This document shows positions 878 through 16,747 of a stretch of 18,754 nucleotides of DNA, piece by piece (position 1 is the first letter of the stretch; the number at the start of each line of letters is the position of its first letter). The notes below the pieces were generated by a model that was given only the letters and a program-made list of their open reading frames with translations, ran no database searches and was not told where the DNA came from. The stretch covers positions 1 through 18,754 of the forward strand of contig JANNWY010000151.1 in NCBI GenBank assembly GCA_031409335.1, in the 5' to 3' direction. Source of the DNA: Chthoniobacteraceae bacterium. GTDB lineage: Bacteria; Verrucomicrobiota; Verrucomicrobiia; Chthoniobacterales; Chthoniobacteraceae. The position numbers were made by a program, and so were the translations under genes.

Positions 878-899
878 ATTTGTGACAGTATTTGTCACG
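878..899. repeat. GTGACA-N5-TGTCAC inverted repeat, candidate integrase arm-type site
   Basis: ATTTGTGACAGTATTTGTCACG. The same ATTTGTGACA occurs at 16245, at the same 51-bp offset from the att-like core. Confidence 0.55.
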
Positions 900-928: not shown

Positions 929-953
929 AGTTGAGGCGAGGGGAGTTTAACCC
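929..953 (-). repeat. att-like core, copy 1: degenerate tmRNA/tRNA-Ala 3'-end fragment
   Basis: + strand AGTTGAGGCGAGGGGAGTTTAACCC, 22/25 identical to 16296-16320. The - strand reads GGGTTAAACTCCCCTCGCCTCAACT, resembling a T-loop plus acceptor-stem 3' strand. Confidence 0.75.
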
Positions 954-1044
954 GCTCGAACCGATGCAAACCGGGCTATTTGATGCGGTGCATCAGAGTA
1001 AATTGATTTTGGTCGTCATCCAGTGCGGTTTGGTTGGGCGGTTT

Positions 1045-1062
1045 TTGTCACAGATTGTCACA
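1045..1062 (+). repeat. Tandem TTGTCACA direct repeat (10-bp period), candidate arm-type or regulator site
   Basis: TTGTCACA-GA-TTGTCACA. Confidence 0.5.
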
Positions 1063-1363
1063 CGCTTCCCGGCGGTCGAATCGCCGATGCGCGCCGGCTG
1101 CGTATGCCTGTGGATTGCGAACGGGTGATGCAGGCTATGAAGCGCCCGAGACCGATTGAACCGCAGAAGGTTCGCGGAGTTGTTCCGGGCGTCGCGTCGC
1201 CGCCGCCGGTTGTCGCAAGCGCAGGCGTCCTATGCCCGCCGCGCCGCGTCACTAACGTTTTTTTTGACAACGACACGCATCGACTGCGCAATTCGCGGAT
1301 CTTCCGCAATTGAAGGCGCACGCATCGCCTTACCCGAAGCGCGGACGTGTGTCGCTCTGGGGC

Positions 1364-1379
1364 TGGCCCCACTTTTGCA
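1364..1379 (+). promoter_or_regulatory. Candidate sigma-54 (-24/-12) promoter of the + operon
   Basis: TGGCCCCACTTTTGCA fits TGGC-N7-TTGCW with exact GG-N10-GC spacing, about 100 bp upstream of the 1479 start. Confidence 0.6.
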
Positions 1380-1478
1380 AAACTTGACCCACACAACCTG
1401 TGTGCTACCTAGCACGGCGCTGGTTCGGAGCCTGGCCGAGAGCCGGCTTCCACGATTTCACAGCGGCCCACCGACGAC

Positions 1479-3782
1479 TTGCAGACACATCAGCACTTAA
1501 CGCTATTTGGAATACGGGGGGCTCTTTGGTGCGTGCTTGGAGCAGCCGGTTTGACGGTGGCCTCCGCCGCCAGACCCATCCCGCCGGGTGGCCCGGACCC
1601 GGTGGCGGCGCGGATGTTGACTTCGACAAAGGATGCCGCGCGCCTCGCACTGGAGCGGGAAGGATTACCGCGGCTTAGTCCCGGGATCGTGACTCCCAAG
1701 ACGGATTCCGCACGCACGCCACTCGGCAAGAATTCGGCGACGAGCGAGCCGCCCATCATCGACGGGCGGCTCGACGATGCATGTTGGGCGAATGCGCCCG
1801 TCATCGACAAGTTCACGCAGGTCGAGCCGGTGGAAGGTGCGGTGCCGTCGGAACGCACCGAGGTGCGCATGCTCTACGACCGCGATTATCTGTTCATCGG
1901 TATTCGCTGCTTCGACCGCGAGCCGGCCAGGATCGTCGCCAAACAGATGCAGCGCGACGCCGACATGGACTCCGACGACACGCTCGCGCTGGTCTTCGAC
2001 ACCTTTGGGCGAAAGCGCACGGGTTACCTCTTTAAGATCACCCCTCGCGGCGCGACCCAAGATGCTCTCCTGGAAGCCGATGGCGCCCAGAAAACAGAAT
2101 GGGACACGGTCTGGACTGGCCGCAGCGGCATCGATGAGACCGGCTGGACGGCGGAGATTGCGATTCCGTTTAAGAGCCTCGCCTTCGATCCGCATTTGAA
2201 TGTCTGGGGATTCAACGTCGAGCGAGTCATCCGCCGGAGACAGGAGACCGTGCGTTGGGCGGCGCCTTTCCAGAATAAAAACGTGACGTCACTCGCCGAC
2301 TTGGGCGAGTTGCGCGATCTCTCCGGGATGCGGAAGGGACTCGGGTTGGAATTCAAGCCATTCGCCGTGCTGCGCTATGCGGAGCGCAGCGACGGGAAGA
2401 ACCAAGGACTCGAGTTTGAGCCCGGCTTCGACCTCTTCTACAGCATCACGCCATCGCTCACGGCAGCGCTGACCGTGAACACCGACTTCGCCGAGGCGGA
2501 CGTGGACAAGCGGCAGGTGAATCTCACGCGCTTTCCGCTCTTCTTCCCGGAGAAGCGCGACTTCTTTCTCCAGGACGCGAACCTCTTCAGCTTCGGCGCT
2601 TACAAGGGGCCGCTGGCGTTCCACTCGCGCCGCATCGGTCTCGGCCCGGCAGGGGAAACCGTCGATCTCCTGGCCGGGGGCAAACTCACGGGCCGGATCG
2701 GGAACCTCGATCTAGGTCTGCTCGATGTGCAGGTCGATGATACCGCGGGCGTGCCGTCGAAAAATCTGGCGGTCGGTCGCGCCTCTTACCGCGTGCTGGA
2801 GGAGTCGTCGATTGGCGGCATCTTCACCTACGGCGATCCGCGGAGCTCCGGCGACAACGCACTGTTCGGCGCCGACGTGAACTACCGAAACAGCCACTTG
2901 TTTAAGAACAATGCTTTCAAGGCGCAGGCATGGGTGATGAAAAGCGATGCCAGCGGAGCCGACGGACGCCAGATGGCGTTCGGCGGTTCGTTGCGCTATC
3001 CGAATGAACCGCTGGCGGCAGAGGTCTTTGCCTCACAGATCGATGCCGATTTCAACCCCGCGCTCGGCTTCATCCCACGACGCGGTATCCGTCAGTACGG
3101 AGGGAAGCTAGGCTATCGGTGGCGCCCGGGCGGTTACATCCGTTCGATGGGTGTGCAAGTGCAGCCGTTCTATGTCACGAATCTCGAGGGCGTGATCGAG
3201 ACGGAATCGGTGACCTTGCCAGGGATCGATTTTCTCAACGAAGCGGGGGATTCGCTGAACCTCGGATTCACCGTCAATCGCGAAAACTTCCGCGAAGGAT
3301 TCGAGATCAATCCGGGCGTTTTTGTTCCGGGTGGCGATTACCGGTTCAACCGCGCGTTTGCGCTGCTTTCCTCCACCTCTGCCCGACCGCTCAGTGCTTT
3401 TGCCAGCCTCGACATCGGCGAGTTCTACGACGGGAACAGCCGCGAATACGGTGCCGGGCTCGAGTGGCGGTTGAATGAGCACGTGTACCTGGCGACGGAA
3501 GCGACGCTCAGCCAGATCGAGCTTCCCGCAGGAAGCTTTGATGTCGTGGTTGGCCTTGCGCGCGTCAACTTCGCCTTCACGCCGAACCTTTCCTGGAACA
3601 CGGTGGTGCAATACGACAACGTCTCGCAAACGGCGGGTGTGAACAGCCGCCTGAAGTGGATCGTCCAGCCCGGCAGCCAGATTTTTCTCGTCTTCAACTA
3701 CGGTTTCGATGCGGAAGACGGCAGGTTCCAGACTCTCTCCACCGACATCACGACGAAGCTGGTTTGGACCTTTCGCTTTTAA
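1479..3782 (+). CDS. CBM9-like sugar-binding domain plus DUF5916-type outer-membrane beta-barrel protein
   Basis: Signal-like N-terminus; PPIIDGRLDD..W...FTQVEP..G..PSERTEVRMLYD (CBM9-like); NTDFAEADVD...NLTRFPLFFPEKRDFF (DUF5916-type); amphipathic strands ending in C-terminal F (WTFRF). The TTG start is uncertain. Confidence 0.85.
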   Translation: MQTHQHLTLFGIRGALWCVLGAAGLTVASAARPIPPGGPDPVAARMLTSTKDAARLALEREGLPRLSPGIVTPKTDSARTPLGKNSATSEPPIIDGRLDDACWANAPVIDKFTQVEPVEGAVPSERTEVRMLYDRDYLFIGIRCFDREPARIVAKQMQRDADMDSDDTLALVFDTFGRKRTGYLFKITPRGATQDALLEADGAQKTEWDTVWTGRSGIDETGWTAEIAIPFKSLAFDPHLNVWGFNVERVIRRRQETVRWAAPFQNKNVTSLADLGELRDLSGMRKGLGLEFKPFAVLRYAERSDGKNQGLEFEPGFDLFYSITPSLTAALTVNTDFAEADVDKRQVNLTRFPLFFPEKRDFFLQDANLFSFGAYKGPLAFHSRRIGLGPAGETVDLLAGGKLTGRIGNLDLGLLDVQVDDTAGVPSKNLAVGRASYRVLEESSIGGIFTYGDPRSSGDNALFGADVNYRNSHLFKNNAFKAQAWVMKSDASGADGRQMAFGGSLRYPNEPLAAEVFASQIDADFNPALGFIPRRGIRQYGGKLGYRWRPGGYIRSMGVQVQPFYVTNLEGVIETESVTLPGIDFLNEAGDSLNLGFTVNRENFREGFEINPGVFVPGGDYRFNRAFALLSSTSARPLSAFASLDIGEFYDGNSREYGAGLEWRLNEHVYLATEATLSQIELPAGSFDVVVGLARVNFAFTPNLSWNTVVQYDNVSQTAGVNSRLKWIVQPGSQIFLVFNYGFDAEDGRFQTLSTDITTKLVWTFRF

Positions 3783-3803
3783 CCAAGTGCCCGTATTGCG
3801 CCC

Positions 3804-4985
3804 GTGAGAATTGCCCTCGTTTCCCAGGAATATCCGCCTGAAACAGCCAAGGGCGGGCTCGGGACGCAGACGAATCTGAAAGCGCATGGACTGGCCGCGC
3901 GCGGGCACGAGGTTCACGTGGTTTCGCAAACGGCCGGACCTGCACTTCAGCACACCCGCGATGGCGATGTACAGGTGATTCGCACGCCGGGCTTTTACCC
4001 ACGCATGCCGATCTGGACTGAGCCCGCGGGCTGGCTGACCTACAGCGCGGAAGTCGCCGCGGTGCTCGCGCAGCTCCATGCCGAAAGCCCGCTCGACCTC
4101 ATCGACTTTCCCGAGTGGGCGGCGGAAGGCTATGTGCATCTGCTCAACCGAGCGGAAGGGAATCACATTCCGAGCGTCATCCATTTGCACGGGCCGCTCG
4201 TCATGTTCGCCCATGCCATGGGGTGGCCGGAAATCGATTCGGAGTTCTATCGGATCGGCACCGAGATGGAGAGGACGTGCCTGCGGCTCGCCGACGCCGT
4301 TTTCTCATCCAGCCAATGTTCGATCGATTGGTGCCGCCGTTATTACGACCTCCGCCACGAGGAGGTGCCGGTGATTCACACCGGCGTCGATACCTCGCTT
4401 TTCTCGCCACGGCCCGTCCCGAAAGAATCGCGGCCGACCGTGATTTTTGTCGGCCGCATCGCGCGCAATAAAGGCGTCGAGACGCTCGTCGCGGCATGCT
4501 GCCGGTTGGCTCGCGAGTTCCCCGATCTTCAGCTTCGGATGCTCGGCAACGGAGAGGAGGGCTTGCTCGCGGAACTCCGGCGTTTGGCTACCACCTCGGG
4601 TTGCTCCACGCTTCTCGACTTCGCAGGCTTCGCGCGAACGGAAGAGCTTCCCGAGCAACTTTCGCGGGCACACGTCTTCGCGGCGCCGTCAGTTTACGAA
4701 GGCGGACCCGGCTTCGTTTACCTCGAGGCAATGGCCTGCGGTGTGCCGGCGATCGGTTGTGAAGGGAGCGGCGTCAGTGAGATTATCACGCACGACCGCA
4801 CCGGTGTCCTCGTGCCGCCCAGGGATGTCGATGCGCTGGCCGAAGCGCTGCGCGACTTGCTGAGCGATCCGGAAAAACGTGCGGCGATCGGCCGCGCCGC
4901 TCGCGAATTCGTTCTCACCTACGCCGAGCGGGAGGACTGCCTGAACCGGCTCGAAGCATTCTATCGACGAGTCGCCGTGAAATGA
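3804..4985 (+). CDS. Glycosyltransferase family 4 (GT-B)
   Basis: RIALVSQEYPP..GG N-terminus, FVGRIARNKG, and the YEGGPGFVYLEAMACG motif. Confidence 0.92.
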   Translation: MRIALVSQEYPPETAKGGLGTQTNLKAHGLAARGHEVHVVSQTAGPALQHTRDGDVQVIRTPGFYPRMPIWTEPAGWLTYSAEVAAVLAQLHAESPLDLIDFPEWAAEGYVHLLNRAEGNHIPSVIHLHGPLVMFAHAMGWPEIDSEFYRIGTEMERTCLRLADAVFSSSQCSIDWCRRYYDLRHEEVPVIHTGVDTSLFSPRPVPKESRPTVIFVGRIARNKGVETLVAACCRLAREFPDLQLRMLGNGEEGLLAELRRLATTSGCSTLLDFAGFARTEELPEQLSRAHVFAAPSVYEGGPGFVYLEAMACGVPAIGCEGSGVSEIITHDRTGVLVPPRDVDALAEALRDLLSDPEKRAAIGRAAREFVLTYAEREDCLNRLEAFYRRVAVK

Positions 4986-6004
4986 ATTCGCCGACGATCA
5001 ACATCGAGGTGCTGACTGGCTTCGAGGACCCGCGCTGCCGACCGGAGGTTTGGAACGCCCTCGTGGCTCGCGGCGGCACCGACGCGATCTTCCTCACCTG
5101 GGAATGGCAGAAAGCCTGGTGGGATTCCTTCGAGCGTCGCGGGCTGCTGCTGCTCGGAGCTGAACGAAACGGCGAACTCCTCGCGATCGCGCCGTTCTTC
5201 GCTGAAGAAGGGATGATCTACTTCGTAGGATCGGGAGGATCGGATTACCTCGATTTCGTGGGCGAAATCCGTGATCCGGAAGTGCTCGATGGGCTTCTCC
5301 TCGGCGCGCGAAACGCCGTGCCGGATTTCAACGGGTTTCGGCTCTATCATCTGCCGGACAAATCGCCGACCGGCGACCTGCTCCGCGCGTCTGCTTCCCG
5401 ACTCGGTCTCCTCTTGCGCGAAGAGGGAGTCCAACCCGCGCCGGCGACTCAGCTCGGCGTGGACAGCGCAGCCGATCGCGCGCTGACGCAAAAGAAGAGC
5501 CTGCTCCGGCACGAGGCCTACTTTCGTCGATCCGGATCGCTGGAAGTGCTGCACCATTCCACGACGGAAGAGATCGAACCGCACCTCGATGCCTTCTTCC
5601 AGCAACACATCGCGCGGTGGAGCGCAACGCCGCATCCAAGTCTGTTCCACGACGCCCGCCAGCAGCGCTTTTATCGCACGCTGACGCAGTATGCTTCGAC
5701 TGGCGGCTGGCTCAGGTTCACGCGCGTCGAATCGAATGACCGCCCGATCGCGTTTCATTTCGGCTTCGCCTATCATGGCGTCTTCATGTGGTACAAACCT
5801 ACCTTCGCCATCGAACTCGCGCGGCATTCGCCGGGGGAAGTGCTGCTTCGCCAGTTGCTCCTGCGCGCAATTGAGGAAAGCGCGCACACCTTTGACTTCG
5901 GGCTCGGCGACGAGCCGTTCAAACAGCGGTTTGCAACCCACACGCAAACCGTTCGCGACTTTGGCCTATATCCAGCCGACGCTCCCATTCCAGCACCGTG
6001 GTAA
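4982..6004 (+). CDS. GNAT family acyltransferase (CelD/BcsL-like)
   Basis: FLTWEWQKAWW, SDYLDF, SPGEVLL, FDFGLGDEPFK motifs. ATGA overlap with the GT4 stop codon. Confidence 0.85.
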   Translation: MNSPTINIEVLTGFEDPRCRPEVWNALVARGGTDAIFLTWEWQKAWWDSFERRGLLLLGAERNGELLAIAPFFAEEGMIYFVGSGGSDYLDFVGEIRDPEVLDGLLLGARNAVPDFNGFRLYHLPDKSPTGDLLRASASRLGLLLREEGVQPAPATQLGVDSAADRALTQKKSLLRHEAYFRRSGSLEVLHHSTTEEIEPHLDAFFQQHIARWSATPHPSLFHDARQQRFYRTLTQYASTGGWLRFTRVESNDRPIAFHFGFAYHGVFMWYKPTFAIELARHSPGEVLLRQLLLRAIEESAHTFDFGLGDEPFKQRFATHTQTVRDFGLYPADAPIPAPW

Positions 6005-6018
6005 ACCGACCACCGCAG

Positions 6019-6654
6019 ATGAAACGCGTTCTTGTTCTCAGCCCCCATCCCGACGATGAAGCCATCGGCCTCGGCGGCACACTGCGGCGGCATATCGTGC
6101 AAGGCGATCACGTCGAAGTTATATTTCTCACCTCGGGGGAGAAAGGGAGCCGCTCGCAATCGCCTGAGGAACTCGGACCGATTCGCGAACGCGAAGCGGA
6201 AGCTGCTGCGAAGATTCTTGGGTGCCAACAGATTGAGTTCTGGCGACAGCCGGACGGATCTCTTGACGCGAATGATGAGCTTATTGCGCGACTCGTGAGC
6301 AAACTCAACGAAATCCAGCGGGACATTGTATATGTTCCGCACGAGGGGGAAATGCACCCCGATCACCGCGCTGCTGCCCAGCTCGTCGCCCGGGCGGTCG
6401 CATCGCTGAACCAACATGCACCGAGCGTGCTCATGTACGAAGTCTGGACGCCATTACAGCAGATCGACCACGTCGAAGACATCTCCTCGCAGATCGATGC
6501 TAAGTTGAACGCAATTCGCGCTCACAAGAGCCAGTGCGACATCATGGACTTCGTCGAGGCGATCCGTGGGCTAAACCGCTACCGCGGTGAAATGCACAGT
6601 TGGCCCGGCGGGCCCTATGCGGAGGTGTTCCAGCACATGTCGCTCGAAAGATAG
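6019..6654 (+). CDS. PIG-L/LmbE family deacetylase
   Basis: PHPDDE and HPDH metal-binding motifs, TSGEKG, R..E. ATG at 6019; alternative GTG at 5998. Confidence 0.92.
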   Translation: MKRVLVLSPHPDDEAIGLGGTLRRHIVQGDHVEVIFLTSGEKGSRSQSPEELGPIREREAEAAAKILGCQQIEFWRQPDGSLDANDELIARLVSKLNEIQRDIVYVPHEGEMHPDHRAAAQLVARAVASLNQHAPSVLMYEVWTPLQQIDHVEDISSQIDAKLNAIRAHKSQCDIMDFVEAIRGLNRYRGEMHSWPGGPYAEVFQHMSLER

Positions 6655-6663
6655 GGCACCCGT

Positions 6664-7860
6664 GTGATCCTCCCCACTAATGCGAATGAGCCAACACCAA
6701 AGAATTATATGATCCTATCAGACATTGAAGTGAGGCAGCACTCAAATGAGTGCGAGTTAACGGCACAGCTAACGTGCGACACGAGCTGGATTCTTGACGA
6801 TCGACCATTCCAGCTTTGGTATCGGTTTCCCGCAGACAATTATGATTTCCTGGATCCCCAAAATGCCGATCCCTATGTTGCCGCTCTGTTAGCGCCGGCA
6901 ATGTGTCTGGGCGAGCCGCTCAAAATCGAAGGCAAAGTCTCTCCGACACTTCTGCGGGCGACCAAACAGATCCAGGAGATTTACCGCTGTTGGAAGCCAG
7001 CACTCAAGCTAGTAGAGGTGGACGTGGAGATCGAAACCGCACGGCGGGCAGACGCGAAGACCGGACCAGGACGTAACGGCCTGTTCTTCTCGCTAGGTGT
7101 AGACTCCGGCTACAGCCTCGCTAAGAACCTTCGCGAGCATTCAGCCGACGAAGAAACCGTAACCGATCTTGTGACCGTCCTCGGATTTGATGTTTACCTC
7201 ACGGAACGACAGCGTTTTGTCGCGATGCTGGAAAACGCCACAAAGGTTGGTTCAGGCTTGGGAAAGAGCATCCTGCCGGTGAGCACGAACCTGCGCGATT
7301 TCACGGATAAGATTGCAGACTGGGTGCAACTTTACCATGGCGCGGCCCTTGCCAGCGTGGCACTGGCGCTTGGCGAGAGGTTTCGTCACATGCTGATCGC
7401 GGCGACCCACACCTACGCCGACCTGCTTCCCCTCGGATCCCACCCCGTGCTCGATCCGCTGTGGTCCACCGAGACGCTTTCGTTTTCACACGACGGATGT
7501 GAGGCCAATCGGCTCAGCAAGATGCGTGGCATTGCAGAAGTTCCCGGTCTGCTGACCACGCTCAGGGTATGCGCTACCGGCGAGACGACTGACGCTTACA
7601 ACTGCGGGCAATGTCCCAAGTGTCTTATGACCATGATCGGTCTGCACATCGTGGGAGCGCTTGAGAAATGCACCACCTTGCCGAAGGAGATCGATCTCGA
7701 TCGCGTCCGCAACATCCCGATAAAAAACACGACGCAAAGAGTCTATCTCCAGCAACTCGCTGACGCGCTGGGATCGGCACGAGATGACCTCGCAATCAAA
7801 GAAGCTCTCGAACACTGCCTGCATCGATCAGCCGGAAAAGCACCCGCTCGAACGGACTGA
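6664..7860 (+). CDS. Uncharacterised PP-loop (adenine nucleotide alpha-hydrolase-like) protein with Cys cluster, paralog 1
   Basis: FFSLGVDS (7090-7107 for SLGVDS), YHG, GSHP, RVC...NCGQCPKC (7603-7623). Alternative ATG at 6709. Confidence 0.7.
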   Translation: MILPTNANEPTPKNYMILSDIEVRQHSNECELTAQLTCDTSWILDDRPFQLWYRFPADNYDFLDPQNADPYVAALLAPAMCLGEPLKIEGKVSPTLLRATKQIQEIYRCWKPALKLVEVDVEIETARRADAKTGPGRNGLFFSLGVDSGYSLAKNLREHSADEETVTDLVTVLGFDVYLTERQRFVAMLENATKVGSGLGKSILPVSTNLRDFTDKIADWVQLYHGAALASVALALGERFRHMLIAATHTYADLLPLGSHPVLDPLWSTETLSFSHDGCEANRLSKMRGIAEVPGLLTTLRVCATGETTDAYNCGQCPKCLMTMIGLHIVGALEKCTTLPKEIDLDRVRNIPIKNTTQRVYLQQLADALGSARDDLAIKEALEHCLHRSAGKAPARTD

Positions 7861-7890
7861 CGCGAACCCCGCAGCGACCGATTTTTTTCT

Positions 7891-8787
7891 GTGATCCACC
7901 ACGTCTTCGCGAACAAGTCTAACATCGGCGACTGGCTCTCTGCGCGCGCGATTCAGAGGCTGCTCGGTCGAGAGCCGGTCTCGGAATATCTTTGTGATGA
8001 ACCATTCGTTCCAGAGACGCTCGCGCGCTTGCGGCAGGCCGGGCCTGGCGATCTGATCATCATTGGCGGCGGCGGGCTGTTCATGGACTACTTCGCGGAG
8101 TTCTGGGAACGGTTTCGCGTCATTGCGGAGCGCGTGCCGTTTGCAATCTGGGGCGTCGGCTGCTGCGACATGAAGCGGCAGAATACCCGGCTGCCCGCGG
8201 CGTTGCTGGAGGAGATCGTGAGCCAGAGCAGGTTGTGTGTCGTCCGCGACGAACTTACTCGCGCCGCATTATCCGGCTGCACACTTCCGCCGCCGGTCGC
8301 GTGTCCGACGATGAGCCTGGTCGAGCCGGCGGCGCCGGGCGCGGGCTTGCTGCACGTCGATGCATTCGATAATGTCGGAGAAGCTAACTACGAGGCGATG
8401 GAGGCTTTTGGGGAAGAGTTCGCCGCCGCGACCGGACGCTCGTTTCACTCAATCAACAACCTCATCCCGGCCGGGAGTGAAAAGAGCCTTAGCACCGTAC
8501 TGGCGCGTTATGAACACGCCGACTTGATCCTTGCTGGCAGACTGCACGGCTGCATCATCGGCCTCGCGATGGGCCGCAAAGTCCTGGCTGTCTCCGGCGA
8601 CCACAAAGTCGAGTCGTTCATGCAAGCCGCCGGGCTGAGCGACTGGGTGCTGGATCTTTCCGAAGTCGGCTCCGTCCCCCAGAGACTGCGCGATCTTGCG
8701 GGCCAGCCAAACCCGGCTGAGTTCATCGCTCGCACAAGAGCTCAGCATCAGCAGATCGCAGCTCAGCTTCGATCGTGGCTGCCGTGA
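7891..8787 (+). CDS. Polysaccharide pyruvyl transferase family protein
   Basis: NIGD, IIGGGGLF, WGVG, VVRD and GRLHG motifs. Confidence 0.85.
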   Translation: MIHHVFANKSNIGDWLSARAIQRLLGREPVSEYLCDEPFVPETLARLRQAGPGDLIIIGGGGLFMDYFAEFWERFRVIAERVPFAIWGVGCCDMKRQNTRLPAALLEEIVSQSRLCVVRDELTRAALSGCTLPPPVACPTMSLVEPAAPGAGLLHVDAFDNVGEANYEAMEAFGEEFAAATGRSFHSINNLIPAGSEKSLSTVLARYEHADLILAGRLHGCIIGLAMGRKVLAVSGDHKVESFMQAAGLSDWVLDLSEVGSVPQRLRDLAGQPNPAEFIARTRAQHQQIAAQLRSWLP

Positions 8788-10040
8788 GCTGCCCAATGAG
8801 TTCTCCACTTCGCATCATCGTTACTGGTCTCATCGCTCAGCATCCGACGCTCGGCGGGGTGACTTGGGATTACCTGCAATATGTGCTCGGCCTCGCGAGG
8901 CTCGGACACGACGTCTTCTATTTCGAAGACTCCGGCGAGTGGCCCTACAACCTCGACGGCGGACCGGGCGGCGACGACTGGGTGGCGCGCGATCCGATGG
9001 ATACGGTGCGGCCACTTGCGAAGGTCTTTGAGCGTTACGGCCTGAGTGAGCGTTGGGCTTACCGTTTTCCCGTCGCGCCTCAGTGGTTTGGGCTTTCCGA
9101 CCAAAAGCGGAAAGAAGTGCTGGAGACGGCTGATCTCCTGATCAATGTCTCCGGGACAATCGAGCATCCTGAGCAGTATCGGGACGTGCGGCGGTTGGCT
9201 TACATCGACAGCGATCCCGGCTTTACCCAGGCGAAGCTTGCCCTTCAGCAAGAGGAGTTTTGTCGCCGCGTTAATGCTCACGACGTGCATTTCACATTCG
9301 GTGAGGCGGCCTCTTCGGGGGTTCCTGTGACCGGCCATCATTGGCGTCCAACCCGGCAGCCAATTGTTCTCTCAGAGTGGTGGGATCCGGGAACTCCGCG
9401 TGAGGTATTTACCACGGTCATGAGCTGGACGAGTTACAAGCCACTCGTCCTCAATGGCAGGACGTATGGACAGAAGGACGTGGAGTTTCGAAAATTCCTC
9501 GACCTTCCGGAGAAGGTGAGGCCCGGTAAGCTCGAAGTAGCGATGGGTCGGCTGCATCACGTGACCTGGGAGGCCCAGGAAATGAGCCTGCCTCCGCGCG
9601 CCGCGTCGCTCGTGCATACGCACCCGAATTGGACCCCTGGCGATCTTCTCGAACACATGGGCTGGCGTATGGCTGATCCCCTTTGTGTTTGTAGCGATCT
9701 CGACAGCTACCGTGACTACATTCGGTCATCCAAGGCTGAGTGGAGCGTCGCCAAGAATGGATATGTCCGCGATCGGACCGGCTGGTTTAGCTGCCGGTCG
9801 GCATGTTACCTGGCGGCGGGCCGCCCCGTGGTAGTGCAGGACACGGGGTTTACTGACGTTATTCCCGCCGGCGAAGGTATTCTCGCCTTCAACACGATGG
9901 AAGAAGCTGTCGAAGGCATCCGCGCCATCGAGAGTGACTACACAAGGCACGCGAAGGCGGCGCGTGCTCATGCAGAGGAGTATTTCGATTCCCGCAAAAT
10001 CTTGAGGCGCCTCATCGAAGACGCGATGGCCACAGACTGA
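8784..10040 (+). CDS. Putative glycosyltransferase (atypical GT-B fold)
   Basis: GGVTWDYLQYVLGLARLGHDV N-terminus; C-terminal WFSCRSACYLAAGRPVVVQDTGF...GEG. The start is GTG 8784 (GTGA overlap with the upstream stop) or ATG 8796. Confidence 0.7.
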   Translation: MSCPMSSPLRIIVTGLIAQHPTLGGVTWDYLQYVLGLARLGHDVFYFEDSGEWPYNLDGGPGGDDWVARDPMDTVRPLAKVFERYGLSERWAYRFPVAPQWFGLSDQKRKEVLETADLLINVSGTIEHPEQYRDVRRLAYIDSDPGFTQAKLALQQEEFCRRVNAHDVHFTFGEAASSGVPVTGHHWRPTRQPIVLSEWWDPGTPREVFTTVMSWTSYKPLVLNGRTYGQKDVEFRKFLDLPEKVRPGKLEVAMGRLHHVTWEAQEMSLPPRAASLVHTHPNWTPGDLLEHMGWRMADPLCVCSDLDSYRDYIRSSKAEWSVAKNGYVRDRTGWFSCRSACYLAAGRPVVVQDTGFTDVIPAGEGILAFNTMEEAVEGIRAIESDYTRHAKAARAHAEEYFDSRKILRRLIEDAMATD

Positions 10041-10091
10041 CCAACAGCTCCTGATCTTCGCTTTGCTCGCGAGCTTTCTTGACGAGCAGGG

Positions 10092-11642
10092 ATGGGTGTC
10101 AAACACTGCCGTATGAAGTTATCTGAACTCAGAACATTCCAAATTGGCGGCAAGACGCGCGTTGAAGTCACAGCGACTTGGGAAGAGGTGCAGCGGCCAG
10201 CCCAGACACTGTTTGTTGAGACGAGCAGCGACTTTTCTGAGGCTTTGGCACCCGACTACGATGCTTTTGTGGCGGCTTGTGCCGTGCCCGCGTTGTTCCT
10301 CGGAGAACGTCGCCTGGCCGTTCCGGGAGACCTTTGTCCGAGGCTTGCAGACGGTCTGGCGTTCGTCATGGGAATCTTCCGGCAGTGGCGCGGCATTCGG
10401 CGTCCGCCTGTCGTCCTTGAGCCCGAAGGAGGCTTCCGGTCGCGTTATTTCGTAATGAAGCCCCGGACAGCCATGCTGCTTTCGGGGGGCGTTGATTCTT
10501 TGGCAATGCTCCGGTTGAATCGGCTTTATTATCCGCGAGACCATCCAGACGCCATTCACGATGGTTTTCTGATCGAGGGTTTCGATCTGGGCGGTTTTGG
10601 CAATCAGGATACCCGCCTGGAACGAATGAAGAAAGCGGTGGCGACCATTGCGGATGATGCCGGGGTAACGGTGATTCCGGTCGTCACTAATTTCGTGGCC
10701 CTCAATCCTGACGTGCATTTCTACGTGAAGCAATGGCACGGCGGTGTCCTGGCTGCGGTGACTCACCTGTTTGCGAAACGAATCACGCGCACCTGCATCG
10801 CTTTCACCTATAATGCGCGCAACCTGGCTCCTTGGGGTTCGCACCCTTTGATCGATCAATACTTCAGCAGCTCGCGTCTCCAGATCGTTCACGAGAGCGC
10901 TCATTTGTCGCGCCTGGAGAAGACCAGATACGTGGCCGACTGGGATACCGGTTTGCACAATATGCGCGTTTGCTTTGGCAATCCTACAGAGGACTTGAAT
11001 TGCGGCCATTGCGAGAAATGCATGCGAACCATGACCGCGCTGCTCGCATTGGGCAAATTGCGTGATTGCCGCGCTTTCCCGAAGCGGGATGTCACCCCGG
11101 ATATGCTCGACGACCTTGGGATGAGCACCAACTACACACTGGCTTGCTATGAAGAACTGTTGTCACCGCTTCGGGAACGCGGACGGGAAGACTTGGTTAA
11201 AGTGATTGAACGCAAGATCAGATATTACGCGCCCTCGATCGCTTTTGGCTACATGGAACCGCAACGATGGCTTGGGGAGTTACCCCCCCTGGTCCAGGAG
11301 ATTACCAGTGCCATCCCGATGCCCAGCACTCTGATCCTCGTCGATGATGGCACCCTGGTTGGTCAGGCACTGGATGGCTATCGTGTCTTCCCATTCCTGG
11401 AGCAGAACGGAGAGTATGCAGGTTATCCACCTGATTCCGCCACCGCAATCGCAGAATTGGAACGTTTGCGGCGGGACGGGGCAGAGTTTGTCGTCTTTAT
11501 CTGGGCGTCGTTTTGGTGGCTTGCTTACTACCGGGAGTTTGAACACTACTTGCGTTCGCAGTTCGGAAGCGTGGTGGAAAGCGAACGGATCATCGCGTTC
11601 GACTTACAGTCAGCCGGCCGGGCCTCCGGTGAGTCAGTGTAA
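10092..11642 (+). CDS. Uncharacterised PP-loop/Cys-cluster protein, paralog 2, with an extra C-terminal domain
   Basis: LLSGGVDS (10482-10499 for SGGVDS), WHG, GSHP, RVC...NCGHCEKC (11001-11021), plus a ~120-aa extension. Alternative ATG at 10113. Confidence 0.7.
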   Translation: MGVKHCRMKLSELRTFQIGGKTRVEVTATWEEVQRPAQTLFVETSSDFSEALAPDYDAFVAACAVPALFLGERRLAVPGDLCPRLADGLAFVMGIFRQWRGIRRPPVVLEPEGGFRSRYFVMKPRTAMLLSGGVDSLAMLRLNRLYYPRDHPDAIHDGFLIEGFDLGGFGNQDTRLERMKKAVATIADDAGVTVIPVVTNFVALNPDVHFYVKQWHGGVLAAVTHLFAKRITRTCIAFTYNARNLAPWGSHPLIDQYFSSSRLQIVHESAHLSRLEKTRYVADWDTGLHNMRVCFGNPTEDLNCGHCEKCMRTMTALLALGKLRDCRAFPKRDVTPDMLDDLGMSTNYTLACYEELLSPLRERGREDLVKVIERKIRYYAPSIAFGYMEPQRWLGELPPLVQEITSAIPMPSTLILVDDGTLVGQALDGYRVFPFLEQNGEYAGYPPDSATAIAELERLRRDGAEFVVFIWASFWWLAYYREFEHYLRSQFGSVVESERIIAFDLQSAGRASGESV

Positions 11643-11656
11643 GGGAGGTTTAGCTC

Positions 11657-13384
11657 TCAGTCCGCGACGATCTCGCCCATTTCCAAGTGCAGCCTCATGT
11701 CGCACTTCTCAAGCGTACTTAGGCGGTGGGCGATCATGAAAGTGGTCAGGCCGGGCATCAGCTTCTCCATGGCTTCCATGATCGCTCCTTCGGTCCTTAC
11801 GTCCACCGAGCTGGTCGGCTCGTCGAGCACGAGGATCGGCGCGTCTTTGAGGAAGGCCCGCGCCAGCGAGATGCGCTGGCGTTCGCCCCCCGAAAGCCGG
11901 GCGCCGCGCTGGCCCACCAGCGTCCGGTAACCGTCCGGCAGCGCGCTGATGAAGTCATGCGCGTTCGCCGCTTTTGCCGCCGCGACAATCTCCTCTTCGG
12001 AGGCGCCGGGCCGGGCGTAGGCGATGTTCTCGCCGATACTGTTGGAGAACAGCACCGGCTCCTGGAGCACGATCGCGAACTGGTTCCGCAGGTCCGCCAG
12101 CCGATACTCGCGCAGATCGAGGCCATCCAGCAGAACCTGGCCGCTGGTCGGGTCGTAGAAGCGTGTCAGAAGACTCACCAGCGTGGTTTTTCCGGCACCC
12201 GTTGTGCCCATGATCCCAACGCGGCTTCCGGGCCGGACTCGAAAAGAAATCCGGTGCAGGACGAAGGTCTCCGGCTCGTAACTGAACGAGACATCGTGGA
12301 GTTCGATTTCGCCTCTCGCCCTCGTGACCGTCTGGCCGTCGGCCCGGTCTTCGACGTCCGGAGTTTCGTCGAGCAGTGTGAAGGCACGTTCAGCACTAGA
12401 CATCGAAGACTGCATCTTGCCGATCTGTCCGCTGATCGTCTTCATCGGGCCGTAGAGCTGCGCAATGTAAGCCATAACTAGGAGTAACTGACCAAGGGTC
12501 ATCGCGCCGGACTGCACATGCTGGACTCCGATGAACAAGGCGGCAGCGGTGCCGCACGCCACCGCGATTCCCACGATCGCTCCAAAACCGCTGTCGAGAA
12601 ACGCAAGGTAAACATGACGCCGGACACCCAGGTTCGCTTTATCCAGATACTCGGCCTGCTGCCGCTCCTCCTGGCCGAATGCTTTCACGACACGAATGGC
12701 GCCGAGTGTTTCCTCGAGGACCGAAAGGGTCGCAGACTGGACTGCTTGCAACTCGCTCCAGCGAGTGCGCACGCGCCTCCGGTAAAACTCCGCGAGCGCA
12801 AACAGCACGGGCATCACAGTCAGCGCGACGAGCGCAAGCTGCACGTTGATGCGGGTGATGATGCAAACCATTCCGACGACCGTGCAGCCCGAGATGAGAA
12901 ATGGCGCGATGCCATGCACCAGAATCCATTCAATGGCCGGCGCGTCGTATTGGATGCGGTAGATCGAATCCGAGGTTCCCTTCCGGTCGTGATAGAGCAG
13001 CGAGAGCCGCTGGGCATGACGAAACAAACGCGATCGGAACGAGAGCACGAGCTTTTCGCTCAGGTAGCTTTCTCCCATATGATTCGCGACGTTCTGCGCC
13101 TGCAGGAGGAAGGTGGTCGCGACGATCAAGCCGACCGCGAGCAGTAACATCGCGCCCTTTGAGGCAGCCACCGATGCGGGCGTGACCATGTCGAGAAACC
13201 ACGGAAGCGGCAGATCGCCGATGACGTGATCCACCGCGATCTTCACCGGCAATGGTATGAGCAGAGTTAGCGGCGTCGCGAGGATTTGCAGAAGGAACAG
13301 TCCTCCAAGGAGCGGCGTCAACGGCCTGGCCTGCTTCAGCAGCAGGCGGTAAATCTGGAAGTCCGAATAGCGGCGCGGTTGCAT
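11657..13384 (-). CDS. ABC exporter, fused permease/ATPase (MsbA/NdvA-like half transporter)
   Basis: N-terminal TM domain, Walker A GTTGAGKT, signature LSGGERQ, Walker B ILVLDE, H-loop AHRLST. The ATG at 13384 overlaps the upstream TGA (TGATG), so the true start is likely here and not at 13528. Confidence 0.93.
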   Translation of the reverse strand: MQPRRYSDFQIYRLLLKQARPLTPLLGGLFLLQILATPLTLLIPLPVKIAVDHVIGDLPLPWFLDMVTPASVAASKGAMLLLAVGLIVATTFLLQAQNVANHMGESYLSEKLVLSFRSRLFRHAQRLSLLYHDRKGTSDSIYRIQYDAPAIEWILVHGIAPFLISGCTVVGMVCIITRINVQLALVALTVMPVLFALAEFYRRRVRTRWSELQAVQSATLSVLEETLGAIRVVKAFGQEERQQAEYLDKANLGVRRHVYLAFLDSGFGAIVGIAVACGTAAALFIGVQHVQSGAMTLGQLLLVMAYIAQLYGPMKTISGQIGKMQSSMSSAERAFTLLDETPDVEDRADGQTVTRARGEIELHDVSFSYEPETFVLHRISFRVRPGSRVGIMGTTGAGKTTLVSLLTRFYDPTSGQVLLDGLDLREYRLADLRNQFAIVLQEPVLFSNSIGENIAYARPGASEEEIVAAAKAANAHDFISALPDGYRTLVGQRGARLSGGERQRISLARAFLKDAPILVLDEPTSSVDVRTEGAIMEAMEKLMPGLTTFMIAHRLSTLEKCDMRLHLEMGEIVAD

Positions 13385-13947
13385 CACTGCGATTGCTTTT
13401 CCGAACGCAGATCGGCCGTGGCGCGCAGGATTGCCGCCATCGCGCTTCCCGCCTGCTGGAAGGTCCAAAGCGCGAACCAACCGAAGCCGATCCCGCAGAT
13501 GATGGCTGCGGTCCACGCTCCCTCCCACGCGGCGATTGTCGCAATCAGTCCGAAGGAAAATATGACTGCCTCAGCACCGCGACGGTATTGCGGCCACACG
13601 CGCGTCCTCACGTATTGCGCGCCGGCACCATGATCTTCAATTGCGAGTAACAGACGGGCGGCGCCGAACATGCCACCCCGGACTTCGATGTCCCAGCGCG
13701 CGAACTCATCACCGCAAAGCACGATGGCACGCTCTTCCCGCAAGGTTTTCTGGATGCGGGCGATGCGTTCTTCGGGCGCCATCCAGTCCTTGGTCCAGAG
13801 GGCGTCTTTGCGCGGATACGGCGTCACAGTTCCCGGCAAGCCACGACGGCGCCAGAAGGTCAGCCCATAATGAATGCGGCCGGAAAGCCTCGCGAGCGGC
13901 TGGAGAAAGTGCAGCCACGCGGTGAGCAGCCGCAATTGCAGCCGCAC
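13384..13947 (-). CDS. C-terminal membrane part of the GH-GT2 fusion (in frame, after the premature TAA)
   Basis: Same frame as the upstream GT2 ORF, 8 codons after TAA 13972-13974. Contains hydrophobic segments and is translationally coupled to the ABC gene. Confidence 0.7.
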   Translation of the reverse strand: MRLQLRLLTAWLHFLQPLARLSGRIHYGLTFWRRRGLPGTVTPYPRKDALWTKDWMAPEERIARIQKTLREERAIVLCGDEFARWDIEVRGGMFGAARLLLAIEDHGAGAQYVRTRVWPQYRRGAEAVIFSFGLIATIAAWEGAWTAAIICGIGFGWFALWTFQQAGSAMAAILRATADLRSEKQSQ

Positions 13948-13971
13948 GAAAGTCGCTCTCCGGGGAAAATG

Positions 13972-15909
13972 TTACGACCCGCGGAAGCCCGCGCGCAGCG
14001 ATTGCACGATGGTAATAATGATCGCTGTGAGGAGCAGTGGGAGCGCAGCAAAGAGCGGTGGCCATGACAACCCCAACAACACGCACCCGCCCAGGAACCA
14101 GACGAGTAAATGCCACTCTGGCATCGTGGGGAGACTTAAGAGGGTGCTCGGTCCGCGCTGGTAAAGTGACTGGAATGGCGCACTCCCCCAAACGCCGTGA
14201 TAGATGCGCGAGCCGAATCCGAGGATGTGGCTGAAGCCTTTGCCATAAAGTCGCCCGTTGAAGGTGTGATGGCCCGCGGAGTTGTAGCGTTCGGGCCACT
14301 TCGTCTCGAGCAAGGCCTCGGCGCGACCGTAGCCGCGCTGCTGCTGGCAATATTTCAAGACCGAACTGCGCCGGTGATGCCAGACCATGGCCGCCGGGCT
14401 GAAGCCAAGCGTCCAGCCGCGTTGCTGGATGCGCCAGCAGGCGTCCACGTCGTCACCGGCCGCGCGGAATCTCGGATCGAATCCACCGATCGCGTCCAAG
14501 GCTTCGCGTCGAAAGGCCATGTTGCACCCGGGGACGTGTTCGGCGAGCTCGTCCGTAATCAGGACATGCACGGGTCCGCCAGGCGCATTGGCGACGCAAC
14601 TAGCGATGAGGCTGCTGTCGTGGGGTTCGACGTTCGGCCCGCCGATGACCATGTGTTCGGTGGTTAGGAAAGAGGCGGCGAGGTAGTCGAGCCAGTCGGG
14701 ATCGGGGTAGGCATCGTCGTCGATGTAGGCGAGAAATTCGCCAGTCGCGGCCTCCATGCCGACGTTGCGCGCCTGGCTGAGACCCTGATTTTTAGTCGAG
14801 ATCAGCCGAACCTTGTATTCGGCTGCGATCTCCGCCGTCGCATCCGTCGAGCCGTCGTTGATGACGATGACCTCGTAATTTGGGTAGGTGAGGCGAGCGA
14901 GGCCCGCCAGGCATTCGCGAATCGTCGCAGAGCCATTGTAGGTGCAGACGATGACTGAAAAGCGAGGCGTGGGCCGGTCGGGCGGAAATGGCGTCTCGGC
15001 GAAGGCTTTGGAAACTGCTGCCAGCGCCGGTTTTGGCCGCCGCAATGTGTCTGTCAGGCCGAATGCCCAGTCGTGGACGAATTCCTTGGCGCGATACCAT
15101 TCGTCCGTCCACGAGAAGATGATCGTGCCAGCGCAGCCCGCACGGAAAGCGGTGCGGATTTGCCAGTCGAGGACGGCTGCTTGTTTCTCCTCGCCATTGC
15201 GGAGCGCGTCGAGACCCACCTCGCTCATGATCAGCGGCCGGTCGCCGGCGATATTCTGAAGTCGGAGAAGATACGAATACAGCACCGGCTCCGATTCCAG
15301 GTAAACATTGAAGCAGACGAGATCGAGGAACGGGAGATCCAGATACTCGGTCGTCGGGTAGTTGACATAGGTCACCAAGCCTTCCGGGTCTTCTGCTTTG
15401 ATCGCGCGAAAAATTCGGCGCAGATAACGCTCAATCGTCCGCGCGCCCAGCCAGCGCACGACCGAGGCTGGGATCTCGTTGCCAATCGCGCAACAGAGCA
15501 GCGCCGGATGTCCTGCCACCTGCCGCACCTTCGCTCGCACCAGCGCCGCGACGCCCGGCCCCTTCTTTTCCGGGTCCACGAGATAGCCCACATACTGCTC
15601 CGCGGAGAGGCCGACCATCACGCGCAACCCGTGCCGCTCCGCGACATCCAGGAGGGCGCGCGGCGGCATCGTGTGCGGGATGCGCACCGTGTTAATTCCG
15701 GCAGCAGCCATTTGCTCAAAGTCGGCGTCGATCTTATCGAGATCGTGGTATTCGTTCCCGGTCTCGTCCGGCTTGAATGCGCCGTAAGTCACGCCTTTCG
15801 GTGAAAACTTTTGCTCTCCGACGAAGAGAAATTTGCCCGAAGCAACGGGTCGCGCGATGGCGGCGCTTCGTTTCAGGGAATCTTCGAGTGATGGGACGGC
15901 GGTTTCCAC
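13972..15909 (-). CDS. Clan GH-A (GH2/GH17-like) TIM-barrel fused to a GT2 glycosyltransferase, interrupted by an in-frame stop
   Basis: GH motifs IGNEI, IMSEVG and FSWTDEW; GT2 motifs VCTYNG, NDGSTD, YIDDD, GCNMAFRR, GDDVD and QQRGY; TM hairpin at the end. The start is most plausibly GTG 15909; the ORF is open to 16179. Confidence 0.85.
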   Translation of the reverse strand: METAVPSLEDSLKRSAAIARPVASGKFLFVGEQKFSPKGVTYGAFKPDETGNEYHDLDKIDADFEQMAAAGINTVRIPHTMPPRALLDVAERHGLRVMVGLSAEQYVGYLVDPEKKGPGVAALVRAKVRQVAGHPALLCCAIGNEIPASVVRWLGARTIERYLRRIFRAIKAEDPEGLVTYVNYPTTEYLDLPFLDLVCFNVYLESEPVLYSYLLRLQNIAGDRPLIMSEVGLDALRNGEEKQAAVLDWQIRTAFRAGCAGTIIFSWTDEWYRAKEFVHDWAFGLTDTLRRPKPALAAVSKAFAETPFPPDRPTPRFSVIVCTYNGSATIRECLAGLARLTYPNYEVIVINDGSTDATAEIAAEYKVRLISTKNQGLSQARNVGMEAATGEFLAYIDDDAYPDPDWLDYLAASFLTTEHMVIGGPNVEPHDSSLIASCVANAPGGPVHVLITDELAEHVPGCNMAFRREALDAIGGFDPRFRAAGDDVDACWRIQQRGWTLGFSPAAMVWHHRRSSVLKYCQQQRGYGRAEALLETKWPERYNSAGHHTFNGRLYGKGFSHILGFGSRIYHGVWGSAPFQSLYQRGPSTLLSLPTMPEWHLLVWFLGGCVLLGLSWPPLFAALPLLLTAIIITIVQSLRAGFRGS

Positions 15910-15940
15910 GGTGTCGTTTTTAACTGGAACGTCTGGGGGT

Positions 15941-15956
15941 AGCAATGAGCGAGCCG
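15941..15956 (-). promoter_or_regulatory. Candidate sigma-54 promoter of the - operon
   Basis: - strand CGGCTCGCTCATTGCT versus consensus TGGCACG-N4-TTGCW, with exact GG-N10-GC spacing. The predicted TSS near 15930 lies just upstream of GTG 15909. Confidence 0.5.
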
Positions 15957-16244
15957 CCGAAGAGTAGCAATCCGCCTTCGAGACGTTCTTCGACAATCCG
16001 ACCGGCGAGAACGAACAGCGCATCATGGCTGATGCGAATCTCACCGGGACCGCCGTGGCCGTGGGCCACTCAGCGTCCCCTCCGGCGACCGAATCGCCGG
16101 CCAGAATCAGGGCGATCCCCCTGCTGCGCCAGACGATGAAGGCTTTGCAAAGCGTCCCTCTCCTCCCGAACAATTCCAATCGCGTTCAGAGTGGCCTTTG
16201 TCTCACACAAGCCCAATCCCGCTTGCCGAAGGGCTTGAAGAGGC

Positions 16245-16265
16245 ATTTGTGACAATGCCATCACG
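16245..16265. repeat. ATTTGTGACA...TCACG motif, candidate arm-type site
   Basis: ATTTGTGACAATGCCATCACG, matching 878-899 in sequence and in offset from the att-like core. Confidence 0.55.
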
Positions 16266-16295
16266 CACGTATTGACCTCTCCCACAGTGTGTTGG

Positions 16296-16320
16296 AGTGG
16301 AGGCGAGGGGAGTTGAACTC
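16296..16320 (-). repeat. att-like core, copy 2: tmRNA/tRNA-Ala 3'-end fragment
   Basis: - strand GAGTTCAACTCCCCTCGCCTCCACT: T-loop TTCAACT, T-stem 3' strand CCCCT, acceptor strand CGCCTCC with U70 and discriminator A. The 5' T-stem strand does not pair, so this is not an intact gene. Confidence 0.8.
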
Positions 16321-16326: not shown

Positions 16327-16468
16327 TGGTAGGGGTGTTTTGGCGGGCAGCTTCCGCCAATGCCCGCCAATACTTGATTTGCGGTTGGCAGGGCATTTCG
16401 AGCGGAGTTCCCGATAATATGCACGTAAACGCCATTATCCGCCAAATCCTACCACGATTTTGGTAGGA
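16327..16468. repeat. Cluster of short inverted/direct repeats adjoining att copy 2
   Basis: TTGGCGGGCA-N11-TGCCCGCCAA (16340-16370); TCCTACCA-N6-TGGTAGGA (16447-16468); extra TGGTAGG at 16327; CCGCCAA at 16354, 16364 and 16439. Confidence 0.6.
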
Positions 16469-16747
16469 AAATCGGAAATCGAACAAACCAAGTTTCAAGG
16501 GCGACCGGCGGTTTCTCGGAGAGTGCTTGTTTCGTCGCAGATGGTCCAGAAAGTCATGCCTGGCACGGAACGCTTTTTTCGCGTTGCGATCATGTGAGTC
16601 GCAAAATTGAGAGAAGCTGCCCGAAATGGAATGCAAATGCGATTTTTTGCCGAGACCGGACGGCATGGATAGTCTGCGTGACTTTGGAGCAGGCAGCTTT
16701 GCAAAGCTGCTCCGTATGCGGAGCCACTTTCGTCGAAGGAGTTCCCT

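Follow-up and report, generated by a model that had tools for sequence, protein, structure and literature searches.

Integrase-less 15.4-kb glycan island with tmRNA-derived ends in a Chthoniobacteraceae genome, probably spread as a cis-mobilizable element by an ssrA-targeting integrative and conjugative element

The DNA analyzed here is an 18,754-bp window that forms an entire contig (C151, JANNWY010000151.1, positions 1 to 18,754) of GCA_031409335.1, a Chthoniobacteraceae bacterium assembly of 7.9 Mb in 326 contigs that is 98% complete. Most of it is taken up by a 15.4-kb unit of glycan genes, which we find to be an integrase-less island whose attachment (att) ends derive from ssrA, the gene for transfer-messenger RNA (tmRNA). 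In our reading, to which we give a probability of about 0.62, this island has spread as a cis-mobilizable element (CIME) carried by an ICE (integrative and conjugative element) that targets ssrA. The sites on which this reading leans are the following:

929..953, minus strand: att core copy a, which is a displaced 3' end of the tmRNA and bounds the glycan unit on the right, with 2 substitutions in the 20-nt core relative to the host tmRNA; homology to the copy of the unit in another genus (genome G455, below) ends here.
16296..16320, minus strand: att core copy b, a displaced tmRNA 3' end, which is the left boundary of the glycan unit and the right boundary of a resident ICE.
933..1064, minus strand: conserved right (attR) arm of ~130 bp in which a direct pair of heptamers occupies 1046-1052 and 1056-1062, the same arm as in an ssrA ICE family (nhmmer with a 25-arm profile, E 1.9e-34).
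16248..16254, minus strand: heptamer TGTCACA, +44 from core b in tmRNA sense, the predicted left-arm site of the glycan unit, at the same offset as at copy a and in identical context in G455.

The two boundary repeats had been noticed in a preliminary description made from the sequence of the window alone. They lie in the same orientation, agree at 22 of 25 positions and are the sole pair in the window at 22/25 or better, while six of six dinucleotide shuffles of the window yielded none. That description had called them tmRNA/tRNA-Ala-like and proposed a comparison with the 3' ends of ssrA and tRNA-Ala, which clearly separates the two candidates. Among the 48 genes that ARAGORN finds in the genome there is one tmRNA, at C293:74106-74467. 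Its 3' end agrees with copy b in 23 of 25 positions and with copy a in 22 of 25, while no tRNA-Ala gets beyond 19/25 and 18/25 with the two copies, so the tmRNA half of the description stood, and tRNA-Ala is ruled out as the target. As had also been stated, neither copy is part of a complete RNA gene, since the window contains no tRNA or tmRNA gene (and no Rfam match up to E 5). A scan of the 7.9-Mb genome at up to five mismatches returned four sites, namely the tmRNA, copies a and b, and C80:1140-1164, and because there are only these four, a dispersed repeat of the repetitive extragenic palindromic (REP) type is ruled out as well. That the repeats are displaced tmRNA 3' ends is thus confirmed at the level of sequence.

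The claim that the central module is devoid of a recombinase is upheld by four concordant searches. None of the 18 PF00589 matches in the genome lies on the window contig, and the 18 open reading frames (ORFs) of the window include no recombinase or transposase by Pfam. Since PF00589 missed a known integrase, that on contig C293 (and the integrase clade described below scores under the Pfam Phage_integrase cut-off), this absence was rechecked with tblastn and with a home-built integrase profile. The profile found nothing under E 0.2 in the six frames of the window, and tblastn with four integrases gave weak matches only (E 0.002 and 0.47), which are located on att sequences and come from one integrase whose N terminus reads through its own att site. 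Relaxase, coupling protein and mating-pore genes are likewise not found among the 11 ORFs of the glycan unit. The copy of the unit in G455 has no recombinase gene either, and ICE backbone genes have no match in it.

This G455 copy shows that the mobility ascribed to the central module is real. G455 belongs to another genus, and window positions 928-15998 align with it at 90.9% over 15,105 columns, a second block (16070-16318) at 81.7%, and all 11 ORFs at 80-97%, the two flanking cores being 15,610 bp apart in G455. Homology ends at the cores, the G455 neighbors being another TGTGACA-arm unit (not an ICE) upstream and topoisomerase genes (not the Fic gene that adjoins the unit here) downstream. 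Divergence at fourfold sites between the two copies is 0.19 (2,453 sites), against 0.447 for 15 chromosomal genes pooled, 14 of which lie at 0.36-0.55, with one partial match at 0.13 retained in the pool. Because parC, which sits beside the unit on the same G455 contig, gives 0.36, a misbinned contig from a close relative is disfavored. From a silent divergence of 0.19 where the chromosomes show ~0.45, the same ends and different neighbors, we infer that the glycan unit moved horizontally between genera. Its marker gene is present in 2 of the 151 family genomes, and was found neither in the four same-genus genomes (71-90% complete) nor in the 145 others of the family. Nor did the four same-genus genomes offer an empty site with matching flanks, ssrA being followed there by other islands or by a contig end.

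G455 carries five cores, that is, its tmRNA and four displaced copies on four contigs (C194, C296, C346 and C28; loci L173-L177 and L206). All four displaced copies have the conserved right arm, four of the five cores are followed by the TGTCACA heptamer, and the genome stacks at least four integrase-less units. One internal G455 core has another tmRNA loop variant than the gene of its host, and this junction was perhaps imported whole. Logan contigs from a second study contain parts of the unit at ~92-98%, including one that runs across the junction of the Fic and glycan units, which hints at further carriers. In Logan contigs of four runs, no joint between ~950 and ~16300 was seen among 15 of the 33 joints, a result that is neutral because such contigs drop rare forms; among the holders listed there was none of RNA.

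Which element could have carried the unit is indicated by its right arm. The 25-arm profile also matches a truncated arm copy on C80, and an exact-pattern scan of GTDB genomes located 23 loci with the heptamer 86-102 nt before a core, 22 of them named as Verrucomicrobiota (20 at the level of Chthoniobacterales or Spartobacteria) and one as Nitrospirales, on a 1.6-kb contig. At these 23 loci, with upstream flanks between 19 bp and 10 kb long, our integrase profile has no match, and among the matches listed a diverse set of genes precedes the arm. Across 31 distinct arms the length is nearly fixed and the consensus fold trivial (median DNA z -0.8). An attC-like structure is ruled out, as there is no conserved hairpin in the 31 arms. 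The parent element is seen in G086, a genome of a second family. On a single contig there, the tmRNA is followed by a TGTGACA pair, then by an integrase of 396 aa (phrog_1, E 7e-16), an ICE of ~93 kb with a TrwC relaxase, a coupling protein and genes resembling those of a type IV secretion system (T4SS), and lastly by arm and core. Behind this ICE follow 18.6 kb without an integrase, which end in a second arm and core, and the same tandem of cognate ICE and unit behind it recurs in G414.

Relatives of the G086 integrase at 75% identity or more form a clade whose members occur in 9 of the 130 genomes of the family and, in the second family, in 4 of 131 (G086 included), and also in G865 and G021. 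We checked eight clade loci, and all seven that had upstream DNA start directly behind a tmRNA 3' end and the heptamer. From this co-occurrence, together with established tyrosine-integrase biology, the clade integrase is predicted to bind the TGTGACA arms; searches of solved structures gave no match for the integrase. The cognate integrase is not in the genome studied here (best hit 31%), nor in G455 (best hit 38%). Other sources of a helper were considered and set aside. Viral contigs yielded no locus for two att patterns and no confirmed integrase relative, and the only integrases that this genome and G455 have in common above 75% are XerC/XerD-like pairs (next best 47%), which rejects a host-encoded helper. 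The 12 integrase loci of G455 hold just one heptamer. A third family of ssrA elements, seen at L005:1950-3263 (reverse-complement coordinates) and at L220, has GTAGGAAC arms and an integrase at its right end, the frame of which runs through the att core.

In the genome under study, a direct pair of TTTTCCTACCA comes immediately after the tmRNA on C293, and behind it lie genes for a tyrosine integrase (phrog_1), an XRE protein, a MobF relaxase, a ParA-like protein and a coupling protein, so that integrase, relaxase and coupling protein of a resident ICE are all found. The relaxase scores above the MobF cut-off of NF041492, while the VirD4-like coupling protein falls below its cut-off. Compared with the ICE of G086, the relaxase is 56% identical, the coupling protein 74% and an XRE protein 55%, whereas the integrases share only 27% and the arms differ. 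Paired CCTACCA motifs exist at just two places in the genome, behind the tmRNA and right of copy b, where the window holds:

16448..16470, no strand assigned: inverted CCTACCA pair, the predicted right arm of the resident ICE, corresponding to the direct pair behind the tmRNA on C293.
16777..17055, plus strand: XRE regulator, 55% identical to an XRE gene that lies close to the right end of the ICE of G086.
17651..17956, plus strand: second XRE regulator of the resident ICE end.

Because the CCTACCA pairs mark only these two ends, beside two XRE genes, the resident ICE most likely spans the distance from the tmRNA to copy b. The intact gene does, by this link, lie to the right of the window on the minus strand, as had been predicted, and the postulated tandem array of at least three modules is recovered as an intact tmRNA on C293 plus three displaced 3' fragments in the same orientation, presumably contiguous across contigs. 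The order would be tmRNA, ICE, copy b, glycan unit, copy a, a unit of Fic and TOTE primase-helicase genes, the C80 core and the chromosome. The stretch 18476-18754, once labelled LysR, matched nothing in Pfam or NCBIfam. Counted in tmRNA sense, both window cores have TGTCACA 44 nt behind them, and the direct TGTGACA pair stands ~95 nt before core a, in a genome where the heptamer has a frequency of ~1.3e-5 per position.

Three further features of this genome were recorded. Copies of the same ICE backbone (67-90% identical) reside at other sites, on C214, C228, C161, C111 and C294. The genes that precede the tmRNA in three same-genus genomes are here on C65:13985-16477 without a tmRNA behind them, as compared with C293:74057, which points to a rearrangement just upstream of ssrA. 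Finally, C9 and C14 hold two trios of adjacent tyrosine-recombinase domains, which we take to resemble recombinase-in-trio (RIT) elements.

How an island without a recombinase could have travelled is best accounted for by cis-mobilization. An ICE of the TGTGACA-arm family would integrate at the tmRNA 3' end, ahead of a resident unit, and its integrase would recombine the attL of the ICE with the conserved attR arm of the unit, so that both are excised as one circle. The MobF relaxase and T4SS of the ICE would transfer this circle, which would integrate at the ssrA of the recipient. Later, the ICE may excise alone and leave the unit behind, and repeated rounds would stack units with the newest beside the tmRNA. 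This scheme is the simplest fit. Its three expectations, a right arm that is conserved, a left end that is free and no origin of transfer (oriT), are all seen. The right arm is conserved in sequence and nearly fixed in length over the 31 arms while left ends vary, and the glycan unit itself has the right arm in common with the ICE family. As for oriT, a 15-nt motif in the leaders of the ICE relaxases, present in three ICE copies of this genome and in G086, is our candidate. No cassette locus contains it at up to two mismatches, and the one three-mismatch match in the window is at chance level. The preliminary description had offered, as one of two possibilities, movement in trans, "integron-like". 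Neither part was borne out, since there is no oriT-like motif, cis-mobilization explains the data, the arm lacks a conserved hairpin, and the ends are att sites of tyrosine-integrase type with arm-type repeats. The units of the present genome are probably fixed, since its assembly lacks the cognate integrase and they bear signs of decay, namely an altered core a, a GH2-GT2 gene of the glycan unit broken by a stop, the truncated arm and an insertion sequence (IS).

Several points weigh against cis-mobilization. No excision or transfer has been observed. Both genomes with the glycan unit are without the cognate integrase, and the unit was never seen beside a cognate ICE, while binding of the arms by the clade integrase is deduced from co-occurrence only. 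Many unrelated units retain the TGTCACA heptamer at +41 to +45, although pure cis-mobilization needs no left arm. Moreover, the left spacer of the glycan unit differs from that of ICE attL and has no integrase stub, so that the unit, whose right arm is shared with the ICE family, may or may not have arisen by deletion from this ICE. Silent divergence of the Fic-TOTE unit (0.38-0.45) does not fall below that of recA/ahcY (0.34-0.50) and so gives no evidence of transfer. The contig order in this genome is itself inferred, since C151 has no end overlap with other contigs, and the G455 assembly is split into 360 contigs, carries 7% contamination and has its array spread over four contigs.

The left arm is where the alternatives can be weighed. 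We ran a pattern-only census of left arms over the 151 and 131 genomes of the two families, which gave 26 distinct sites; copy a of the window was not included, its core being mutated, and the inverted pair of G861 was counted among the C-type arms. Behind TGTGACA (G-type) left arms at +38/39, the clade integrase is present, whole or in part, in 15 of 16 cases, within 70 nt of the core or shortly after it, whereas behind TGTCACA (C-type) left arms at +37 to +44 an integrase is present in 0 of 10 (0 of 7 with G455 counted once), two of the C-type sites having less than 900 bp of flank and sites from related genomes not being independent.

This contrast is what speaks most for a dedicated class of cargo-only cassettes with a left-arm design of their own, which the ICE integrase would move singly in trans, ssrA serving as a cassette array loaded by a visiting helper. 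It also accords with this view that true deletion remnants keep the G-type arm (an integrase stub in G021, and G156), that four of the five cores of G455 have the C-type heptamer in a genome without the cognate integrase, that the Fic-TOTE unit stands alone with both arms at the intact tmRNA of G117, and that the cargoes are unrelated (glycan genes, Fic-TOTE, a 2,083-aa repeat protein and Wzc-type polysaccharide genes). However, the heptamer is a near-palindrome, so that the "flipped" arm amounts to a single central difference, G to C. The C-type class is mixed as well, since G924 represents an ICE attL in decay that still has a trace of the start of the integrase, and the ICE spacer persists at four sites (three in G455, and L006), while nine others, including both window sites, resemble neither spacer nor integrase. 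Without an oriT-like motif such cassettes would have no route of their own between cells, and the dependence among sites and the short flanks given with the census count here too. We therefore consider this explanation unlikely, if the strongest of the rivals. Equally doubtful is its general form, a Chthoniobacterales cassette system at the tmRNA with units of up to 15 kb (glycan, defense, adhesin and polysaccharide) and a flipped left arm kept on purpose, which the ICE integrase would stack and excise singly. If it were true, the glycan locus of a cell could be added or removed as a single cassette without a recombinase of its own.

A weaker candidate still is a second, unsampled clade of ICEs or IMEs (integrative and mobilizable elements) which uses the C-type arm and whose integrase was lost after, or shortly before, the last move of the units. 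A heptamer at fixed offset and AT-rich spacers unlike the known ICE spacer would suit the attL of another integrase clade, and sampling comprised one genome per species, mostly in fragmented assemblies. Yet there is no integrase of 43%-74% identity to the clade in 131 + 131 genomes at the cut-offs used, no integrase follows a C-type arm at the 10 census sites or at seven metagenome loci, and the two genera share the glycan unit in colinear form, which places any loss before the transfer, all of which leaves this clade improbable. Least probable is an old immobile island, vertically inherited or moved in a chromosomal block by homologous recombination, which the decay seen here (two changes in core a, the GH2-GT2 nonsense stop, the truncated arm and the IS on C80) would fit but which is opposed by a silent divergence less than half the chromosomal value that drops exactly at the att cores, by different neighbors on both sides, and by the missing unit in four of four same-genus and 145 other family genomes; the divergence and the neighbors already go far toward refuting it.

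The cargo of the glycan unit is as follows:

1092..1192, no strand assigned: short remnant resembling part of an ORF on C162 (helix-turn-helix-like by eye), 79% over 101 nt (tblastx E 1.5e-6).
1479..3782, plus strand: CBM9-like and DUF5916 protein (Pfam).
3804..4985, plus strand: GT4 glycosyltransferase (Pfam).
4982..6004, plus strand: GNAT acetyltransferase, Acetyltransf_6 (Pfam).
5998..6654, plus strand: PIG-L family de-N-acetylase (Pfam/NCBIfam).
6664..7860, plus strand: 398-aa protein without a Pfam family, 30% identical to its paralog at 10092-11642.
7891..8787, plus strand: polysaccharide pyruvyl transferase (Pfam).
8775..10040, plus strand: glycosyltransferase (Glyco_trans_1_2), with a close match in 2 of 151 family genomes, both within the glycan unit.
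10092..11642, plus strand: 516-aa protein without a Pfam family.
11657..13528, minus strand: MsbA-like ABC exporter (membrane and ATPase parts), below every NCBIfam equivalog cut-off among the matches listed.
13384..16179, minus strand: GH2-type TIM barrel fused to GT2, with an in-frame stop at 13972-13974; a single open 880-aa frame in G455.

Together, these genes likely make, acetylate or deacetylate, pyruvylate and export a glycan or glycoconjugate. O-antigen and capsule loci are typically recognized by Wzx/Wzy or Wzm/Wzt export, an initiating transferase and nucleotide-sugar synthesis. None of these hallmarks is among the Pfam or NCBIfam matches of the window, where export instead falls to the MsbA-like ABC protein. 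A surface glycan is for this reason only a plausible product, and the earlier idea of a surface glycan that is swapped stays a conjecture. The locus may be inactive here, because the GH2-GT2 frame is interrupted by a stop that is supported by contigs of two runs of one study and is open in G455. At window positions 11748 and 11754, in the ABC gene, contigs of runs X1 and X2 read other bases. In relatives (40 sampled) the cargo genes have only ~40% paralogs, which occur in other settings, and no plasmid matched as a source. Relatives of the 398-aa protein, found in 12 of 400 phylum genomes, reach only 29-37%, and the ESM Atlas gave no named family for it. The two paralogs without a family are patchy in the phylum, and their nearest named Atlas clusters, DUF6395 (0.89) and QueC-like (0.88), are leads only.

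On the other side of copy a, the window contains the end of the Fic-TOTE unit:

1..825, plus strand: 3' part of a Fic gene (SoFic-like; PF02661; PADLOC SoFic E 2e-94), the first gene of an integrase-less Fic and TOTE primase-helicase unit.
881..899, no strand assigned: inverted heptamer pair TGTGACA (881-887) and TGTCACG (893-899); counted from the core in tmRNA sense, the two lie at +32 and +44, and they are predicted to be the integrase sites in the left arm of the Fic-TOTE unit.

A complete unit of this kind measures 4,411 bp (L002:9361-13771) and lies between an intact tmRNA and a displaced core. The window Fic gene is 85.7% and the 3' end of the C80 helicase 84.1% identical to the ends of the L002 unit, the C80 core being the other end. 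Decay of the unit at the start of C80 is visible as the truncated arm and IS-like sequence beside the helicase, and the layout of the 881..899 pair recurs in L001/L002, L005 and G861. Fic and archaeo-eukaryotic primase (AEP)-TOTE units of 4.4 kb (here window 1-825 plus C80:139-1161) are found at ssrA in several genomes, 84-92% identical, and we regard the unit as a candidate defense cassette. Other units were observed at the same kind of site: a 7.8-kb att-bounded unit at L004:393-8245, without an integrase, encodes a 2,083-aa protein with passenger-associated and Ig-like repeats; L052 from position 3368 onward (G406) has a C-type left arm and then polysaccharide genes, one of them for a chain-length protein of Wzz/Wzc type, and represents a second unit of glycan type whose right end is off the contig; and L181 (G156) has a G-type left arm without an integrase, followed by three tandem flagellin-like ORFs (by eye).

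How do these units compare with known systems? Integron cassettes form arrays of recombinase-less cargo at one site, where attC folds into a conserved single-strand hairpin and IntI acts with attI. Here, in contrast, the arm has no conserved hairpin, the units are multi-gene with promoter regions of their own, the site is the attB of ssrA, the contig holds no IntI-type integrase, and the likely helper is a phage-type tyrosine integrase located at attL. To our knowledge, integrase-less islands at the tmRNA are mostly taken for dead remnants, and a helper can seldom be named. CIMEs, and the accretion and mobilization of ICE-CIME tandems, are defined in PMC7563491 and PMC5704250. As depicted in the parts of these sources on which we draw, CIMEs have no integrase, relaxase or transfer genes, have att sites at both ends, stand in tandem with an ICE at the 3' end of a gene, farther from the target than the ICE, and commonly carry carbohydrate and glycosyltransferase genes, all as here. 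The glycan unit correspondingly has no recombinase and no transfer genes and has kept attL and attR (by sequence, core a having 2 substitutions). It differs in phylum and target (Verrucomicrobiota, tmRNA) and in size, 15.4 kb against 1.2-13 kb in the Streptococcus salivarius survey (PMC7563491, PMC5704250, same parts). Differences also lie in the transfer between genera inferred from silent sites and in a left arm that is systematically unlike that of the cognate ICE.

Tandem islands behind ssrA, with a ~20-bp repeat of its 3' end, are described for Dehalococcoides in the relevant portion of PMC3146451, where 15 are without an integration module and were put forward as CIMEs; those islands have serine recombinases (DsiA/DsiB) and dehalogenase genes, whereas here we find the tyrosine integrase of a MobF/T4SS ICE and arm-type repeats. 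In islands of the Islander type, insertion by a tyrosine integrase restores the tRNA or tmRNA gene and a displaced 3' fragment marks the far end (as outlined in an extract of PMC4383910), and the central unit departs from them in being without its own integrase. The iOriTs of bioRxiv 10.64898/2026.01.13.699239 are, going by an excerpt of that source, oriT-only hitcher islands that depend on a conjugative helper. In the units here, by comparison with iOriTs and IMEs, neither the conserved motif upstream of the ICE relaxase (the candidate oriT) nor an integrase of their own was found.

A literature search whose coverage left out most subscription journals listed no paper that treats this ICE family or a difference in arms between an ICE and its passenger. 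Tandem ssrA islands without an integration module are already published; what appears to be new is a named likely helper, the transfer of one large unit between genera and the left-arm difference. As the helper integrase, the arm motif and the 15-kb transfer between genera can all be named, mobilization in cis versus in trans becomes directly testable. A flipped left arm, if functional, would offer cargo a simple means of parasitizing the integrase of an ICE. The case also illustrates a route for Verrucomicrobiota of soil and sediment to gain whole glycan-modifying loci.

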